Shown piece by piece: positions 1-22,256 of a stretch of DNA of 32,000 nucleotides. Position 1 is the stretch's first letter, and each line of letters begins with the position of its first letter. The notes under the pieces are model-generated. The model saw nothing but the letters and a program-made list of their open reading frames with translations, was not told the DNA's origin and searched no databases. A program made the position numbers and the translations under genes. Source of the DNA: Candidatus Jordarchaeales archaeon (GTDB taxonomy: Archaea > Asgardarchaeota > Jordiarchaeia > Jordiarchaeales > Freyrarchaeaceae); NCBI GenBank assembly GCA_038889235.1, contig JAWAHN010000001.1, positions 1,034,499 through 1,066,498 of the forward strand, written 5' to 3'.

Positions 1-39
1 CGTGACTTTAAGCAACGGCTTAAAGACCTAACACTGTGA
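1..39 (+). CDS. 3' end of an upstream gene truncated by the window edge (…RDFKQRLKDLTL*)
   Basis: Frame 1 is open from base 1 to TGA at 37-39, immediately before the SD-like GGAGGT (41-46) of the next gene, suggesting an operon. Too short to identify. Confidence 0.5.
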   Translation, partial: RDFKQRLKDLTL

Positions 40-53
40 GGGAGGTCAGCATT

Positions 54-788
54 TTGGGTTTACGCGAAATCCGTGAAAGAATTGAGATGAAGAAAAGTAT
101 GGAAAAAAAGGCTCTCGAACTTAAACTGGAAGAACTAGAGAAGGAGCTTGAAAACGCGATGATGGTCAAAGAGAAGATAGAAAGTATCGCTGAAAAGTAC
201 GGAGTTATCATAGCGGCTAGTCCTAAATTTCAAGAGGAAGTAAAGCTTCTAAGAGAAAAATACGGGATACCCGAAAGCGCGGTCATATCTCAAATAGTGA
301 AAGAGGAAGACGTGTTAAAAGAAAGAATGTTTGGCCTATCTAAGAGCATAGATTACGAAAAACTTGGATTATTGATCTATCAACGTGCACTTTTCAGGCG
401 TAAGGAAACGGGAGGGGTCATGTCCCTTGGGGAAGTGTGCCTCCTGATAGACACAGGCAAGCTCAAAGGTAAAATTAAAATGGATGATGTGAAGCGCGCT
501 CTTAAAGAATTGGAGAAAAAACGTGTAATTCCCGGGTTACGCCAGCTTAAATCAGGAGTGGAAATCGCTATATTTATTCCGGCTGAGTTAAGTGACGATC
601 AAAATGAAGTTCTAAATTTGGCTAGTGAAAAAGGCTTCATCACGTTAGAAGAATTAATGGTGAAGACTGGTTGGACAAAAGAGCGAGCTGAAAGAGTACT
701 AAAATCGTTAGAAGAAAGTGGGATTGCCAGGAAAGAAGAAAGTTATGCATATGGAGAAAAATATTACTTCCCCGGACTAACTCGTTGA
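54..788 (+). CDS. ESCRT-II subunit, Vps22/Snf8 (EAP30/Vps36 family)-like protein
   Basis: Resembles eukaryotic Snf8 along its length: N-terminal helix, ASPKFQEEV..GIP, ETGGVMSLGEV (cf. NGGLITLEEL), IPAELSDDQNEVLNLASEKGFITLEEL..GWTKERAERVLKSLEESG tandem winged helices. Start placed at in-frame TTG 54, 7 nt after GGAGGT; ORF track uses GTG 36. Confidence 0.85.
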   Translation: MGLREIRERIEMKKSMEKKALELKLEELEKELENAMMVKEKIESIAEKYGVIIAASPKFQEEVKLLREKYGIPESAVISQIVKEEDVLKERMFGLSKSIDYEKLGLLIYQRALFRRKETGGVMSLGEVCLLIDTGKLKGKIKMDDVKRALKELEKKRVIPGLRQLKSGVEIAIFIPAELSDDQNEVLNLASEKGFITLEELMVKTGWTKERAERVLKSLEESGIARKEESYAYGEKYYFPGLTR

Positions 789-1561
789 ACTTGTTTTATC
801 TTTTCCTTCCCCTAGTGGTTTTCCATCTATTGTCATCATAGGCCTTGCAGGTATACCCGCCCAAACTTGGTTTGGCGGTATTCTAGTGCCTGATAGTACT
901 AAGGACATCGCCCCAACTACAGAGTTATCTCCTATTTCAACATCTGGGAATATTACGCTGTTTCCGCCTATGACAACATTCTTTCCTATCTTAACTCTTC
1001 CTATGCGCAATTTCCCCCTGTCGAACACATGCCCCGAAATTATGGATCCACCTCCAGCTATAGAACCATCTCCCATTTCCACTAGATATGGGTCTGCTAC
1101 AAACGAAGCCATGGAACCCTTTCCCATTTTAGCTCCAAGTCGTCTTAGCACGTATGCTCCAAGCCCTGGCATGCCAAATGGCCTGTTCCTGGCGAGGGGC
1201 TTCCCTACGCCAGTTCGAACCCTATATAGTGGAGAGCAAGGCATGTTACTAATCCGTTACGAAGCCAGTTCACCACGTTGGGGTTTCTTGGGCTCATCTC
1301 GTGCACTCCCTCCTCTACCGGCCTTATGGATCGTCCTGCCATGAACAGCAACGTTAAATTAAATGTCCACCTCGCGATAACATAGTATGCAGGTGCCAGA
1401 GCTACTAGCAGAAATAATGGTAACCTGAGAACTTCCATCATGAAGTAGACTAAAACCACGACTGGAATTATCCCTACAGTAGATGCGGCCAATAGGTACC
1501 CGACTAATAACCCGAGTAAGTTCGGAACTTTTTCCTCCCTTTTTTCATTGCTCAATTCCAA
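777..1561 (-). CDS. Membrane-anchored left-handed beta-helix (hexapeptide-repeat) acyltransferase-like protein, interrupted by a 32-nt BHB intron; exons 1561..1215 and 1182..777, 250 aa spliced
   Basis: ORF 1205..1561 encodes two hydrophobic segments. ORF 777..1244 encodes hexapeptide repeats (VKIGKNVVIGGNSVIFPDVEIGDNSVVGAMSLV) and VWAGIPARP. Removing 1183..1214 joins them in frame: …LHYIGFE/PFGMPGLGAYVLRRLGAKMGK…. Confidence 0.85.
1183..1214 (-). other. Candidate BHB intron in a protein-coding gene (ACUGGCGUAGGGAAGCCCCUCGCCAGGAACAG)
   Basis: Central helix GUUC/GAAC, 3-nt bulges GA^A and AG^G on opposite strands, inner stem CUGGCG(U)AGGG/CCCUCGCCAG, outer GG/CC. The 32-nt excision removes the TAG at 1205-1207 and restores the frame. 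Confidence 0.85.
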
Positions 1562-2456: not shown

Positions 2457-4694
<2,238 letters not shown>

Positions 4695-4865: not shown

Positions 4866-7800
4866 ATGTCTAATAGTTATCTGACAAATGAGGACAGATG
4901 GGTCCTCGTCGAAGCTTTTATCGAAGAAAAAGGCTTGGTCCGCCAGCACCTTGCATCTTACAATGACTTCGTAGAACATGGCATGCAAGCAGTGGTAAAC
5001 GAAGTTGGCAAGATCGAGATAGAAGGAGAAGACTATTACGTAAAACTGGGAAAGATAGAAGTAGGCTATCCTCCAGCAATAAAGGAAGCTGACGGTTCCC
5101 GCAACTTAATAACCCCCGCCGAGGCAAGGATAAGAAACCTCACATACTCCGCCCCAATATACCTAGAAATGTCGGTAGTCTACAAGGTTGACGGGAGGGA
5201 GGTAGAAGAAGAACCTGTCCAAGTATACATAGGACAGCTGCCAATCATGTTAAAGTCTGTAAAATGCCCCCTGTCAACTATGAGCCGAGAAGAACTTATT
5301 GAAATAGGGGAAGATCCAGACGATCCTGGAGGATACTTCATAATAAATGGTTCAGAAAGGGTTCTCGTTACACAGGAAGACTTGGCTCCCAACAGAATTC
5401 TTGTAGAAGAAATGGATAAAGGAGGCCCTATCACTCACGTAGCTAAAGTTTTCAGTACTGCAAGAGGCTTTAGGGCTCCAGTGACTATGGAACGGAGGCG
5501 AGACGGCACCATAAAAGTGTCGTTCCCAGCAATTCCTGGAAAAATACCTCTTGTGGTTTTGATGCGCGCTTTGGGATTAGTGACCGACCAACAAGTGGCA
5601 AGCACCATAGACTCGAGTGATCCCGAAATTCTGAATGAATTTATCCTCTCAATAGACGAGGCATCTTCAATTTCCACCAGAGAGGATGCACTCGACTACA
5701 TAGGAAAACGTGTTGCTGTAGGTCAAACAAGGGAGTACAGGATAAAGCGCGCAGAGCAAGTCCTAGACAAATACTTACTACCCCACATAGGAACAGATCC
5801 GGAGTCACGTTTGAAAAAAGCGTTTTACTTAGGTCAAATGGCCCAACGACTCATTGAACTTGCACTTAAAAAGCGAGAGCCAGATGACAAGGACCACTAT
5901 GCTAACAAGCGCCTTAAGTTAGCTGGTAGTTTACTGCTGAGCTTGTTTAGAGTTGCGTTCCTAAATCTTTGCAAAGACATAAAATACCAGCTAGAAAGAA
6001 TGGCGACAAGAGGAAAGCGTCGCAGCATAGCGAACGCTGTTCGTGCAGATGTGATAACTGACAGGTTATACCACGCTCTGGCAACCGGGAACTGGGTGGG
6101 CGGCAAGTCCGGTGTAAGCCAACTCCTAGACCGAACAAACTACTTGGCTTCACTAAGCCACTTAAGGCGTGTCGTCTCCCCACTAAGCAGAAGTCAACCA
6201 CATTTCGAAGCAAGAGACTTGCATCCGACTCACTGGGGGAAAGTCTGTCCCAATGAGACTCCTGAAGGACCAAATTGCGGTCTTGTGAAAAACCTCGCCC
6301 TGCTAGCATACATATCAGTAGGGATAGATGAAAGTGAGATCGAAAACAAGCTCATAGAACTAGGTCTCCGCCCAATAGAAGAGCTCGGAAGAATAGCTGG
6401 TGTTGAAGGCGCCAAAGTATTCTTAAACGGAAGGCTTGTCGGCTTCCACAGCGACCCAGAACTGCTTGTTAAACGTATCAGGGAGCTCAGAAGATCGAAT
6501 ATTATACATGACGAAGTAAACGTGGCATATTACGAAGACGCCAATGAAGTTCAAATCAATTGTGATGCAGGACGGGCAAGACGCCCATACATTATAGTTG
6601 AGAACGGGACTCCGAGGCTTAAACCAGAACACGTGGAAAAGCTGAAAAGAAAGGAATGGACGTTTTCAGATCTGGTTAGACGAGGAATAGTTGAATACCT
6701 CGACGCGGAGGAGGAGGAAAACTCCCGCGTAGCTCTAAACTTGGAAGATATTGACGAGGAAACCACTCACCTAGAAATTATGCCGACAACGATTTTAGGA
6801 ATTTCTGCCGGAATAATCCCCTATGCTGAACACAACCAGAGTCCAAGAAACACCTACGAAGCAGGTATGGCCAAGCAAGCCCTAGGACTTTTCGCCTCAA
6901 ACTACAAGCTTAGAATGGATACAAGATCTCATATCTTACACTACCCACAAACCCCAATAGTTACTACTAAGGTCGGCAAGCTATCTGGCTTTGAAAAAAG
7001 GCCTGCAGGGCAGAACTTCATAGTTGCAGTCTTATCCTATGAAGGGTACAACATAGAAGATGCGCTCATAATAAATAAGGCGTCCATAGAGCGCGGCATA
7101 GGCCGCTCATTCTTCTTCAGGTGTTACGAGGCAGAGGAAAGAAAATATCCAGGAGGACAAGAGGACAGGTTTGAAATCCCCGATCAAAGTGTAAGAGGCT
7201 ATAGGCAACCTGAAGTGTACAAGCGCCTATCCGAAGACGGAATAGTAGAGCCCGAAACCGAAGTAGCAGGGGGCGAAGTGATAATAGGTAGGACTAGTCC
7301 ACCGAGGTTCCTTGAAGAGCGAGCCGAATTCGAGGTCCTCTCACCAATAAGGCGAGAAACCTCAGTCAGCATAAGACACGGAGAAAAGGGAACAGTAGAC
7401 ACCGTCATACTCACGGAGACCATAGACGGAAACCGTCTCGTGAAAGTTAAGATACGCGACCAGAGGATACCCGAATTAGGAGATAAGTTTGCGACAAGGC
7501 ATGGGCAAAAAGGAGTCATAGGCATGATAGTCCCACAGGAAGACATGCCTTTCACAGAAGACGGAATAGTCCCTGATTTAATAATAAACCCACATGCATT
7601 TCCGTCAAGGATGACCCTAGGGCAACTAATAGAGTCTCTTGCTGGAAAAGTAGGTTGCCTAGCGGGAAGAAAAGTAGACGGAACAACATTCTGCGGAGAA
7701 AAACCCGAAGACCTATGCGAAGAACTCAAACGCTTAGGATTTAAGTACAACGGGAAGGAAGTAATGTATAACGGTATCACAGGCGAAAAATACGAAGTAG

Positions 7801-12004: not shown

Positions 12005-13030
12005 GTGGAAGGTGACTTTTTGTCTCTCCCCCACTATGATACCTTAAGAAAAGATGCTGAAAGAAACCTTGAGGTAGGTAGATTCCTCAATGCAGCTAGG
12101 GAGTTTCGAGTTCTGTCGCTTGCGGCGGAAAAAGACGGAGTCTATGAGCTTGCAGGAGAGTTCGCAGCCAAATCCGGAGATTGCTGGCTTAAAATGGGTA
12201 AACATGCCGCCGCAGCGACCATGTACGAACATGCAGCAAAAAACTTTCATTTAGCAGGAAAGTTATCGCATGCAAAATCCTATTTCAAAAAAGCTTTTAC
12301 AGAATTCCTTATAGCGTCGAAAATGCCTGAAACTTCCACCTTAGATAAAGTGCTTTTCCTCGTTCGGGCGGCCAGATGCGTTTCCGCTCTCGGAGACCAA
12401 CGTACTGCCAAAACTCTCTTTTCAAAGGCTTGCGATCTCTTAGTCAACTTTGTGCCCTCCTACTTCTCCAACGAGGATTATGCCTCTGCTATGTTACACT
12501 ATCTTATCGTTATAAAGCTTTGTGAAGAGATGGACGACAAAGAAAAAGCTTGTCAAGTTGGTTCCTCCTTACGTGAGCTTTCTATGCGTTTTCTGCGCTT
12601 AATATCTGAAAAATCAGTGGAAGAGCAAGACAAGTTCGTTCAAGACCTCCTAAAAAACTTGCTCAACAATCCTCTGTTAAAGGAAGTTTTGGGACAACTG
12701 CCTGTTTTGTTTCAAACTTTACTTACTATTGCACCCGAGTTTCAAAGTCTAAATGTCATCCAAGTTTTGCTAAACTCTTTGTCACCATATTCAAACCCGA
12801 ACTCTACTACTGTAACGTTACATGAAACGTTTCATGAATCACCCCAACAAGCTTCAGCATCGTATGTTTCTCCACAAAGCGAGCAAATCCTTAATTTACC
12901 CTTGTTACACACTAGAACGCCACCGGAAAAACCCACAGTAAACGGGCAAAGGATGAAATCAGAACAGTTCCCCTCACAAGATTCAACGAGTGGTAATTCG
13001 TTAGATGATTTAAAGCAGGAGGAGGGCTGA
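12005..13030 (+). CDS. TPR/SNAP-like helical-repeat protein with a low-complexity S/T/Q/P-rich C-terminal tail
   Basis: Ala/aromatic helical periodicity (AAKSGDCWLKMGKHAAAATMYEHAAKNFHLAG); the last ~85 aa look disordered. GTG start. Confidence 0.6.
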   Translation: MEGDFLSLPHYDTLRKDAERNLEVGRFLNAAREFRVLSLAAEKDGVYELAGEFAAKSGDCWLKMGKHAAAATMYEHAAKNFHLAGKLSHAKSYFKKAFTEFLIASKMPETSTLDKVLFLVRAARCVSALGDQRTAKTLFSKACDLLVNFVPSYFSNEDYASAMLHYLIVIKLCEEMDDKEKACQVGSSLRELSMRFLRLISEKSVEEQDKFVQDLLKNLLNNPLLKEVLGQLPVLFQTLLTIAPEFQSLNVIQVLLNSLSPYSNPNSTTVTLHETFHESPQQASASYVSPQSEQILNLPLLHTRTPPEKPTVNGQRMKSEQFPSQDSTSGNSLDDLKQEEG

Positions 13031-17002: not shown

Positions 17003-18483
17003 GCGACAAGCTGTGGGGTGGAATATATAGGGAGAAATCTCTGAAAGATGTCGAGCATTACACTTCCCATGAAAACATACTGCTAGATGAGCGTCTCGTT
17101 GAATACGATATTCTGGGCACGATAGCGCACGACTACATGCTGTGGAAAATAGGTGCTTTGAGCGAAAAGGCTCTCAAAAAAATTATCTCAGCCCTCCTCA
17201 GGATTAGAGAAGAGTTTAGGAAGGGTCTCTTCCGCCTTAAGATGGAGTATGAAGACGTACACATGAACATTGAAAAGCGGGTTGCAGAGCTAGCTGGAGA
17301 AGACGTTGGAGGAATGATGCACCTTGCTAGGTCTAGAAATGACCAAGTGTTGGTCGACATACGAATGTATCTTCGCGATGAAATAAACGAGCTAACTGGT
17401 CTAACTCTCAACTTAGTAAAAGCCTTTCTATTGTTAGCAAAAAAACATGTCAAAACAGTTATGCCTGCATTCACGCACACTCGTCCTGCCCAACCCACAT
17501 CTTTCGCTCATTGGTGTCTTGCAGTTTCAGACTCTCTTTTGAGGTGTGTTAATCGCCTTAGCGAACACTATAGGCGCGTGAACACTTGTCCGTTAGGGGC
17601 AGGAGCCGTTAGTGGTGTCGGGTGGCCCGTTGACAGGAATCTAACCGCATCGCTCTTAGGCTTCGATGAGGTACATGAAAATACATTTGATGCTATTTCT
17701 TCGCGCGGTGAAATAGAGGCCGAAACCATCTTTATACTAACGCTACTCATGATGACCCTAAGTAGGGTTAGCGAAGACCTAATCTGGTGGTCGACGACAG
17801 AGTTTTCCATGATAGAAATAGATGAACGGTATACCACGGGAAGCAGCATAATGCCACAAAAGAAAAATCCCGATGTCCTGGAACTTGTAAGAGGGAGAAG
17901 CAGCCGTGTTCTAGGCAACCTTGTAGGTTTACTTTCCCTCTTAAAGGCGCTTCCATCGGGTTATAACAGGGATCAACAGGAGACGAAGTTCCTCCTCTTT
18001 AACTCAATAGACATAGTTAAAGAGACACTAGCTATAATGGCTCAAGTTATTGAGACGTTAAAAGTCAACGAAGAAAGAATGGCTGAAATAGCTAAGCGGG
18101 GCATGGTTACTGCAACCGATCTCGTAGATCTTCTGGTTAGAAAAGGACTATCCTTCCGTGTTGCACACAGAGTGGTCGGTGAGTACATTAAATTCGCCTC
18201 GCGCGTCGGCCACGACCCCGTGTTGCTCTCTAAGATAGCCTCAGAAACATCGGGATTACACGTCCAAGTATCCGAAGAAGACATACTCCGCGCCTTAGAC
18301 CCGGTTGCAGCGCTAGAACGTCGCTGCCACTTAGGATCCCCTGCTCCAAGCGAGATACTAAGAATGTTGAACGAAAGAGAAAAAATCGTAGAAATTGAGG
18401 AAGAGTCACTAAGCCGTAGAAAAGAAAGGGTGAAACAAGCAATTAGCAGATTAGAAGAAATTGCCTTATCGCTTGCTTCCTAA
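16999..18483 (+). CDS. argH: Argininosuccinate lyase
   Basis: EDVHMNIE, ARSRNDQV, CPLGAGA, TGSSIMPQKKNPDVLELVRG. 4-nt overlap with argG. Confidence 0.98.
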   Translation: MSDKLWGGIYREKSLKDVEHYTSHENILLDERLVEYDILGTIAHDYMLWKIGALSEKALKKIISALLRIREEFRKGLFRLKMEYEDVHMNIEKRVAELAGEDVGGMMHLARSRNDQVLVDIRMYLRDEINELTGLTLNLVKAFLLLAKKHVKTVMPAFTHTRPAQPTSFAHWCLAVSDSLLRCVNRLSEHYRRVNTCPLGAGAVSGVGWPVDRNLTASLLGFDEVHENTFDAISSRGEIEAETIFILTLLMMTLSRVSEDLIWWSTTEFSMIEIDERYTTGSSIMPQKKNPDVLELVRGRSSRVLGNLVGLLSLLKALPSGYNRDQQETKFLLFNSIDIVKETLAIMAQVIETLKVNEERMAEIAKRGMVTATDLVDLLVRKGLSFRVAHRVVGEYIKFASRVGHDPVLLSKIASETSGLHVQVSEEDILRALDPVAALERRCHLGSPAPSEILRMLNEREKIVEIEEESLSRRKERVKQAISRLEEIALSLAS

Positions 18484-21665: not shown

Positions 21666-22256
21666 ATGTCTGCTGAATCAACCCCTCAATCGACAGTCCT
21701 TCGCTCAAAGAAAGTCGCTGAGCTCATAGAAGGTAATAGAATCATAGTTTGGGATCCAGAGGAAGGATCTAAACTGTACGGCGAAGGGTTCTACGGACAA
21801 CCTCTAGGTATACGGAAGCCCAAGACCCCCCAATTCAACAAACCATTAGAACTCTCACTTCTTGAAGCACTCTATTTGCTAGAAAAGGGGCGCATCGAAA
21901 TATACGACATGAACGACGGCCATCTCATCACGAGGAAAGAATTAGAAGAAAAAGCAGAGAAAACATACATAGACTTCAAGACAAAGTACATTGTCTACAA
22001 GGACCTAAGGGAAAAAGGATACGTGGTTAGACCGGGGCTAAAGTTCGGTGCGGACTTCTCGGTTTACGAGCATGGTCCAGGAATAGACCATGCCCCCTTG
22101 ATCGTTAGCGTAGTTCCGCTAGGAACCCAGTTAAGCCCAATAGACATAGTTAGAGCCGGCCGTCTTGCAACGTCAGTAAGGAAAAAGTTCGTGATAGCCA
22201 CTGTTGAACAGACAGGGGAACCAAAGTACTACATTTTCTCGTGGTTTAAACCGTAA
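21666..22256 (+). CDS. endA: tRNA-intron endonuclease, catalytic subunit
   Basis: RPGLKFGADFSVYEHGPGIDHA (catalytic Tyr, His), GRLATSVRK (Lys), N-domain LELSLLEALYL. Confidence 0.96.
   Translation: MSAESTPQSTVLRSKKVAELIEGNRIIVWDPEEGSKLYGEGFYGQPLGIRKPKTPQFNKPLELSLLEALYLLEKGRIEIYDMNDGHLITRKELEEKAEKTYIDFKTKYIVYKDLREKGYVVRPGLKFGADFSVYEHGPGIDHAPLIVSVVPLGTQLSPIDIVRAGRLATSVRKKFVIATVEQTGEPKYYIFSWFKP

Follow-up and report, generated by a model that had tools for sequence, protein, structure and literature searches.

In a 32,000-nucleotide stretch of a Candidatus Jordarchaeales genome, hereafter the window, a gene on the minus strand extends from a TTG start codon at position 1561 to a stop codon at 779–777 and is read in two frames. 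This locus raises the question of how the two frames are expressed, and whether they yield one protein or two. On the evidence presented here, positions 1214..1183 are very probably a true intron that the tRNA-splicing endonuclease EndA and the ligase RtcB take out of the mRNA; in vivo cleavage, ligation and the exact cut sites are what we infer from comparing sequences.

A short insert divides a predicted membrane-anchored acyltransferase

The first frame (1561..1205, minus strand) encodes 118 residues with two hydrophobic, predicted transmembrane (TM) segments and terminates ..LHYIGFELA at a TAG codon (1207–1205). The second frame, on the same strand, reads ..PFGMPGLG.. and then enters a hexapeptide-repeat domain of the left-handed β-helix (LbH) type. 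In Pfam searches, exon 2 matched PF00132 (Hexapep; 35 bits, cut-off 27) and PF14602 (Hexapep_2; 31.2 bits, cut-off 27), and exon 1 (1215..1561) matched no family. Exon 1 as we define it runs from the TTG start through both TM segments to ..LHYIGF and the bases GA, the first two of a Glu codon. The candidate intron occupies 1183..1214 (minus strand), and exon 2 (777..1182, minus strand) begins with G1182, which would complete the Glu codon ahead of PFGMPGLG.. and the acyltransferase domain. Removing 1214..1183 yields a single 250-residue protein, ..LHYIGFE|PFGMPGLG..; spliced translation thus confirmed the initial sequence-only reading, in which excision of 32 nt including the stop codon was said to rebuild Glu as GA|G and to give 250 residues. 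The predicted spliced junction, with A1215 joined to G1182, is GGGUUCGA|GCCAUUUGG, and the predicted peptide across it is ..HYIGFEPFGMPGLG... By its sequence, the product would be a putative membrane-anchored hexapeptide-repeat (LbH) acyltransferase.

Converging on the 3′ end of the gene is an ESCRT-II-like gene of the EAP30/Vps36 family (36–788, plus strand); in relatives, Vps28 and UEV/Vps23-like genes come after it. On the strand of the acyltransferase gene, the upstream neighbors are a gene for a 284-residue protein without a Pfam match and a T2SSE-type ATPase gene (1654–2508 and 2457–4157, minus strand), both of which may be co-transcribed with it.

The insert can adopt the layout of a minimal or relaxed bulge–helix–bulge

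A motif of the bulge–helix–bulge (BHB) type consists of two 3-nt bulges on opposite strands around a helix (PMC7714728), and cleavage falls between the second and third bases of each bulge (PMC2738675). The geometry first proposed for this insert, a 4-bp helix with 3-nt bulges and a 10-bp inner stem, is present in the sequence exactly as described. The 5′ strand of the central helix, GUUC (1220–1217), is exonic, belongs to the codons GGG UUC and is invariant in all five variants of the insert described below, synonymous third positions included; its 3′ strand, GAAC (1188–1185), is intronic and reads GAAU in three variants, with a G–U pair kept. The 5′ bulge GAA (1216–1214) has a predicted cut between A1215 and A1214 and carries A, G or U as its third base among relatives, and the 3′ bulge AGG (1184–1182), which is AAA or AAG in relatives, has a predicted cut between G1183 and G1182. 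In the BHB register, both bulges are unpaired in all variants (GAA, GAG or GAU; AGG, AAA or AAG). The inner stem-loop (h′, 1189..1213) comprises 6 bp, a bulged U1207 and 4 bp around the loop AAGC; its successive elements are CUGGCG (1213–1208), U1207, AGGG (1206–1203), AAGC (1202–1199), CCCU (1198–1195) and CGCCAG (1194–1189). In relatives, the 10-bp inner stem is continuous and the loop has 4–5 nt. The predicted intron would therefore contain the third base of the 5′ bulge, the inner stem-loop, the GAAC strand and the first two bases of the 3′ bulge, and the overall order (h, H, bulge, h′, loop, h′, H, bulge, h) is that of the tRNA intron at 37/38.

Outside the bulges, the motif is sparse. 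The outer helix has just two G–C pairs (G1222 and G1221 with C1181 and C1180), which are invariant and also constrained by coding, and the next positions are mismatched, so that the motif is a minimal or relaxed BHB. Farther out, the pairing proposed for the exonic flanks can indeed be drawn, CAUGCC (1245–1240) with GGCAUG (1175–1170) and UGCUC (1238–1234) with GAGCA (1159–1155). When a single 71-nt sequence is folded, the inner stem, the GUUC/GAAC pairing and a 5′ bulge of 3 nt are all recovered, at a z-score of only −1.48, and the GUUC/GAAC helix did not form in a longer 141-nt fold. RNAalifold independently predicts the inner stem and favors another outer register, GGUU with RRCC (alignment A2, columns 15–18 with 53–56). 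This register competes with the BHB register, and covariation does not distinguish the two; we place the outer part in the BHB register because its cut rule gives the conserved Glu in every version. Sliding both cuts by +1 also keeps the frame, with Glu in four versions and Asp in one, and coding arguments alone do not fix the boundaries of the insert to the base. Rfam matched no family at 900..1500. A whole-genome search for copies found the intron to be single-copy, and it is thus no repeated mobile element.

Taken by itself, the shape is about as frequent as in random sequence. We scanned for a 4-bp helix (no more than one G–U pair) with two 3-nt bulges, two Watson–Crick pairs outside and 6 bp or more in the inner stem, at lengths of 20–40 nt. 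The window holds five matches, and 20 random windows of matching first-order composition hold 3.65 on average. As a shape, the motif is thus not significant, and the case therefore rests on position and comparison. What lies beyond chance is the location exactly at the frame break, the gap-free product given by the cut rule and the covariation of five diverged copies. Among the four other matches in the window, the two with the longest inner stems are chance occurrences: one at 6948 (minus strand) is antisense to an uninterrupted 1,118-residue ORF, and one at 12683 (plus strand), whose length is a multiple of 3, sits within an unbroken ORF. The remaining two are at 17114 and 10649. Across the whole genome, we scanned for BHB motifs joining two open frames and repeated this with a codon-usage filter; the true cut rule gave 131 matches at the middle threshold, barely above the 106–120 of shifted controls, and these counts give no estimate of intron number. 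We suspect that matches spanning the borders of adjacent same-strand genes pass its frame test.

Five diverged orthologues carry the insert at the same place

The insert occurs at the same place in five distinct versions, found in independent assemblies (NCBI metagenome-assembled genomes, JGI metagenomes and Logan) and spread over two genera of one family plus metagenome contigs. The relatives that bear it are Candidatus Jordarchaeales and Freyarchaeota, in agreement with the Asgard lineage first thought probable from the sequence, and the runs that hold the window DNA are hot-spring metagenomes. Searches of two genomes from the same genus that are less complete (73% and 83%) gave no orthologue. 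A search with the protein of the C-terminal ORF retrieved close relatives (76–88% identity) that are again C-terminal fragments only, and the protein database held no full-length protein of the spliced type above 80% identity.

Two versions of the insert are 32 nt long, which offsets the frames by 2, and the other three are 31 nt long, with an offset of 1; among all the results, this one weighs most. If each bulge is cut behind its second base, the two halves come into one frame in 5/5 versions, always as ..HYIGFE|PFGMPGLG... The 3′-bulge variants AGG, AAA and AAG are such that the rebuilt junction codon is Glu (GAG or GAA) every time. The exonic flanks, including ATAGGGTTCGA, are near-invariant across the five versions, and the loop of the insert is different in each. 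The stop codon of the first frame (UAG, 1205..1207), which would end translation of the unspliced message after ..GFELA, occupies the same position in all five.

Lengths of 31 and 32 nt in independent assemblies are not explained by a 1-nt assembly error, which the raw sequence, with its two frames, might otherwise bring to mind; the same interruption recurs in NCBI, JGI and Logan assemblies from several studies. Nor do the two frames look like those of a decaying pseudogene. Among the five orthologues, dN/dS is 0.05–0.10 in exon 1 and 0.03–0.08 in exon 2, at a near-saturated synonymous divergence of 0.4–0.8, and both exons are under strong purifying selection. Readings in which the interruption is an assembly or sequencing error, or the mark of a pseudogene, are effectively excluded.

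Base pairing is maintained as the sequence of the insert changes. Over the five versions, 97.5% of cells are paired in the BHB structure, against 35–48% when the 3′ partners are slid by 1–3 columns, and the inner stem alone has 96% of its cells paired. Four inner-stem pairs show double changes (U–A/C–G, G–C/A–U, C–G/U–A and G–C/A–U), the compensatory substitutions that had been suggested as a check in related genomes, and the covariation score was reached by 2 of 500 shuffles. In the central helix, all four pairs can form in 5/5 versions; the only change is one-sided (pair 16–51, GC in two and GU in three), and the other three pairs are invariant. Covariation thus backs the inner stem only, and neither the outer nor the central helix.

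In a protein with 99% identity, encoded on a 543-kb contig, the residue specified by the 3′ bulge is K rather than R. The DNA of that near-identical strain would then read AAG for AGG, which would be a sixth version with its change confined to an unpaired bulge base.

The length difference among orthologues is a natural experiment that separates splicing from frameshifting. A stable hairpin with an in-frame stop at the frame change might suggest programmed ribosomal frameshifting across the hairpin, with about 11 extra residues retained in the protein, and cbf5 introns were at first confused with frameshifting in gene prediction (Yokobori et al. 2009, PMC2738675). However, the 32-nt versions would need a −1 shift and the 31-nt orthologues a +1 shift, and inspection by eye found no slippery heptamer where the shift must occur. 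The residues that would be inserted are also unconserved (GVGKPLARNR, SVDAFYTRNK and RVSCAGNK) between flanks that are near-identical, and homologues lack any such segment. We regard frameshifting as highly improbable.

Translational bypassing, of which phage T4 gene 60 is an example, would have the ribosome hop over the insert, and a stop codon and a hairpin do stand here at the start of a short untranslated gap. The take-off and landing codons are nevertheless unmatched, with UUC and GAN before the gap and AGG, AAA or AAG before exon 2. Bypassing predicts neither the EndA-type geometry nor the recurrence of the same layout in cbf5 (below), and we give it hardly any credence.

In the downstream frame of the 31-nt versions, no start codon precedes PFG and a TAG stands directly ahead of the insert. 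Even so, the base that opens exon 2 (G or A), the third base of Glu, varies only synonymously, as do the codons for Pro, Phe and Gly behind it. This indicates that these codons are translated and hence that the insert must be skipped. This bears on a reading of the locus as a gene fission, in which the insert is an intergenic hairpin and the TM stub and the β-helix domain are separate polypeptides that then associate. Gene callers annotated two ORFs for the split gene in every assembly, and 10 nt beyond the insert there is a conserved ATG, the Met codon of MPGLG, where a second protein might start. That Met, however, is equally conserved in uninterrupted homologues and so is not a new start, and the 10 nt between insert and ATG vary only synonymously in the spliced frame. 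Fission also leaves unexplained the exact fit of both insert lengths to the BHB cut rule, and all 26 of the sampled paralogues and sister-family genes are single chains of ~255 residues. We consider fission very unlikely.

Uninterrupted homologues point to a single gain

If splicing removes the insert, homologues without it should resemble the spliced product, and the sequence-only reading held that they would lack the extra ~11 residues. Full-length homologues of 255–259 residues from Lokiarchaeia and other Asgard archaea do read ..HYVG[x][EQK]PFGMP.. without that segment, and the spliced protein aligns to them free of gaps. An example of the empty site in the neighboring family is GGT TAC GAA CCT.

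A maximum-likelihood tree of 31 family members places the five intron-bearing genes in a single clade (99/99), whose sister is a group of intronless genes from the neighboring family. The paralogues sampled from the same genomes, which make up three further groups, are likewise intronless. At least four further TM-plus-hexapeptide acyltransferase paralogues in this genome are uninterrupted (C1:283365–283724, C3:396405–396767, C2:224369–224725 and C3:425571–425936), and the family is expanded in this Asgard order. The simplest reading of these sequences is that the intron was gained once, in one of several paralogues, in the ancestor of one Jordarchaeales family.

The genome encodes the presumed splicing enzymes and a second split gene

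The gene at 21666..22256 (plus strand) had been named as the source of the EndA, and Pfam together with a structural homologue bears this out. Its 196-residue product matches tRNA_int_endo and tRNA_int_endo_N, and its best solved relative is chain B of 3P1Z from Aeropyrum pernix (E = 4e-47), which is the catalytic subunit of a heterotetramer. Their Tyr, His and Lys residues align, and the loop GIRKPK matches DVEKPR without a gap. These alignments identify the product as a predicted catalytic α subunit of EndA with a broad-specificity loop. A 195-residue paralogue on contig C3 (about 444282–444869, minus strand; L038:1474–2061) carries Val where the catalytic His would be and is nine residues shorter in the lysine loop than the window EndA, and it is probably the structural β subunit of an (αβ)2 enzyme. 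A catalytic α subunit accompanied by a β-like paralogue fits the report that Asgard archaea have (αβ)2 EndA with an L1 loop conferring broad specificity, and relaxed BHB motifs need (αβ)2 or ε2 EndA with the specific loop (PMC5829648). RtcB is also encoded in the genome (contig C1, 704115..705422). ARAGORN found no tRNA gene in the 32-kb window (1–32000), which may be a failure of detection given the multi-intron tRNA genes of this lineage.

The match of cbf5 to TruB_N is split in the same genome, and this gene served as an internal control. Its insert of 29 nt (contig C1, about 835887–835915; L045:1482..1510, plus strand) separates the first base of the catalytic Asp codon from the second, and without it the gene reads GHAGTL-D-PKVTGVLPV. 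Pairing the bases by hand produces a BHB-like arrangement of CACU with GGUG, bulges AGA and AAA and a G+C-rich inner stem, the same layout as in the acyltransferase insert. A verified crenarchaeal cbf5 intron occupies the same Asp-codon site (PMC2738675).

Proposed route from transcript to protein

In the splicing scheme that we propose, the transcript would fold so that exonic GUUC pairs with intronic GAAC, leaving two 3-nt bulges and a stable inner hairpin. A heteromeric (αβ)2 EndA, with α from 21666..22256 and the β-like subunit from contig C3, would cut after the second base of each bulge, and RtcB would join the exons to form the Glu codon GA|G. The ribosome could then read one 250-residue protein. 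On unspliced mRNA, it would stop at the conserved UAG, 7 nt into the intron, and make only the 118-residue stub with two TM segments. The conservation of this UAG may be structural, as it lies in the stem, or it may provide an early stop for unspliced mRNA.

In the unconventional splicing of HAC1/XBP1 in eukaryotes, Ire1 cuts a small intron out of a cytoplasmic mRNA at stem-loops and a tRNA ligase (RtcB in metazoa) seals the exons; as the reading frame changes, so does the protein's C-terminal part, in a regulated stress response. By analogy, splicing might gate the amount of active acyltransferase through EndA and RtcB, a post-transcriptional control in which this gene would be one of a genome-wide set. 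We offer this as a speculative idea that is unlikely to hold; the Ire1 endonuclease and its RNA motif differ from those considered here.

Comparison with known systems

In the literature that we searched, splicing of an archaeal coding region by the tRNA endonuclease has been confirmed only for crenarchaeal cbf5, other cases being predictions (PMC2738675), and a 2020 study names cbf5 as the only other example besides its Haloferax 5′-UTR intron (PMC7714728). Our literature search found nothing on archaeal mRNA splicing newer than these two cases. Crenarchaeal cbf5 (Watanabe 2002; Yoshinari 2006; Yokobori 2009, PMC2738675) is the closest precedent. As proposed for the acyltransferase gene, a short non-spliceosomal intron lies within the coding sequence, adopts a BHB-like fold and is cut between bulge bases 2 and 3; the motif is often relaxed and linked to a hetero-oligomeric EndA, and gene callers see two ORFs. 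The host gene, in contrast, is here a lineage-specific membrane acyltransferase paralogue rather than a universal RNA-modification enzyme, and the lineage is Asgard (Jordarchaeales). The present case is known from sequence, and the cbf5 of this same genome also bears an intron at the classical site.

In Haloferax volcanii, the HVO_1309 mRNA likewise carries a BHB motif, at which the archaeal splicing endonuclease cuts it (PMC7714728). That intron, however, is in the 5′ UTR, has a strict hBHBh′ motif and is served by a homodimeric enzyme, whereas the acyltransferase intron interrupts coding sequence and its excision shifts the frame.

The same broad lineage, with the same presumed enzymes, has been described from the side of its tRNAs. 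In the passages on introns in Valentin-Alvarado et al. (2024, PMC11291895), 92–95% of tRNA genes in Freyarchaeia and Atabeyarchaeia have introns, often at non-canonical positions, which suggests a very active and permissive EndA/ligase system. Those passages deal with tRNA introns and mention no mRNA introns, whereas here the intron is in an mRNA whose frame depends on its excision.

The mechanism proposed here is thus already known, and the host gene and the lineage are new. For annotation the case matters because every gene caller split the acyltransferase gene in two. Together, the acyltransferase and cbf5 introns suggest that tRNA enzymes may splice mRNAs routinely in this lineage, which, if true, has a bearing on the coexistence of intron-bearing messages with translation before there was a nucleus.
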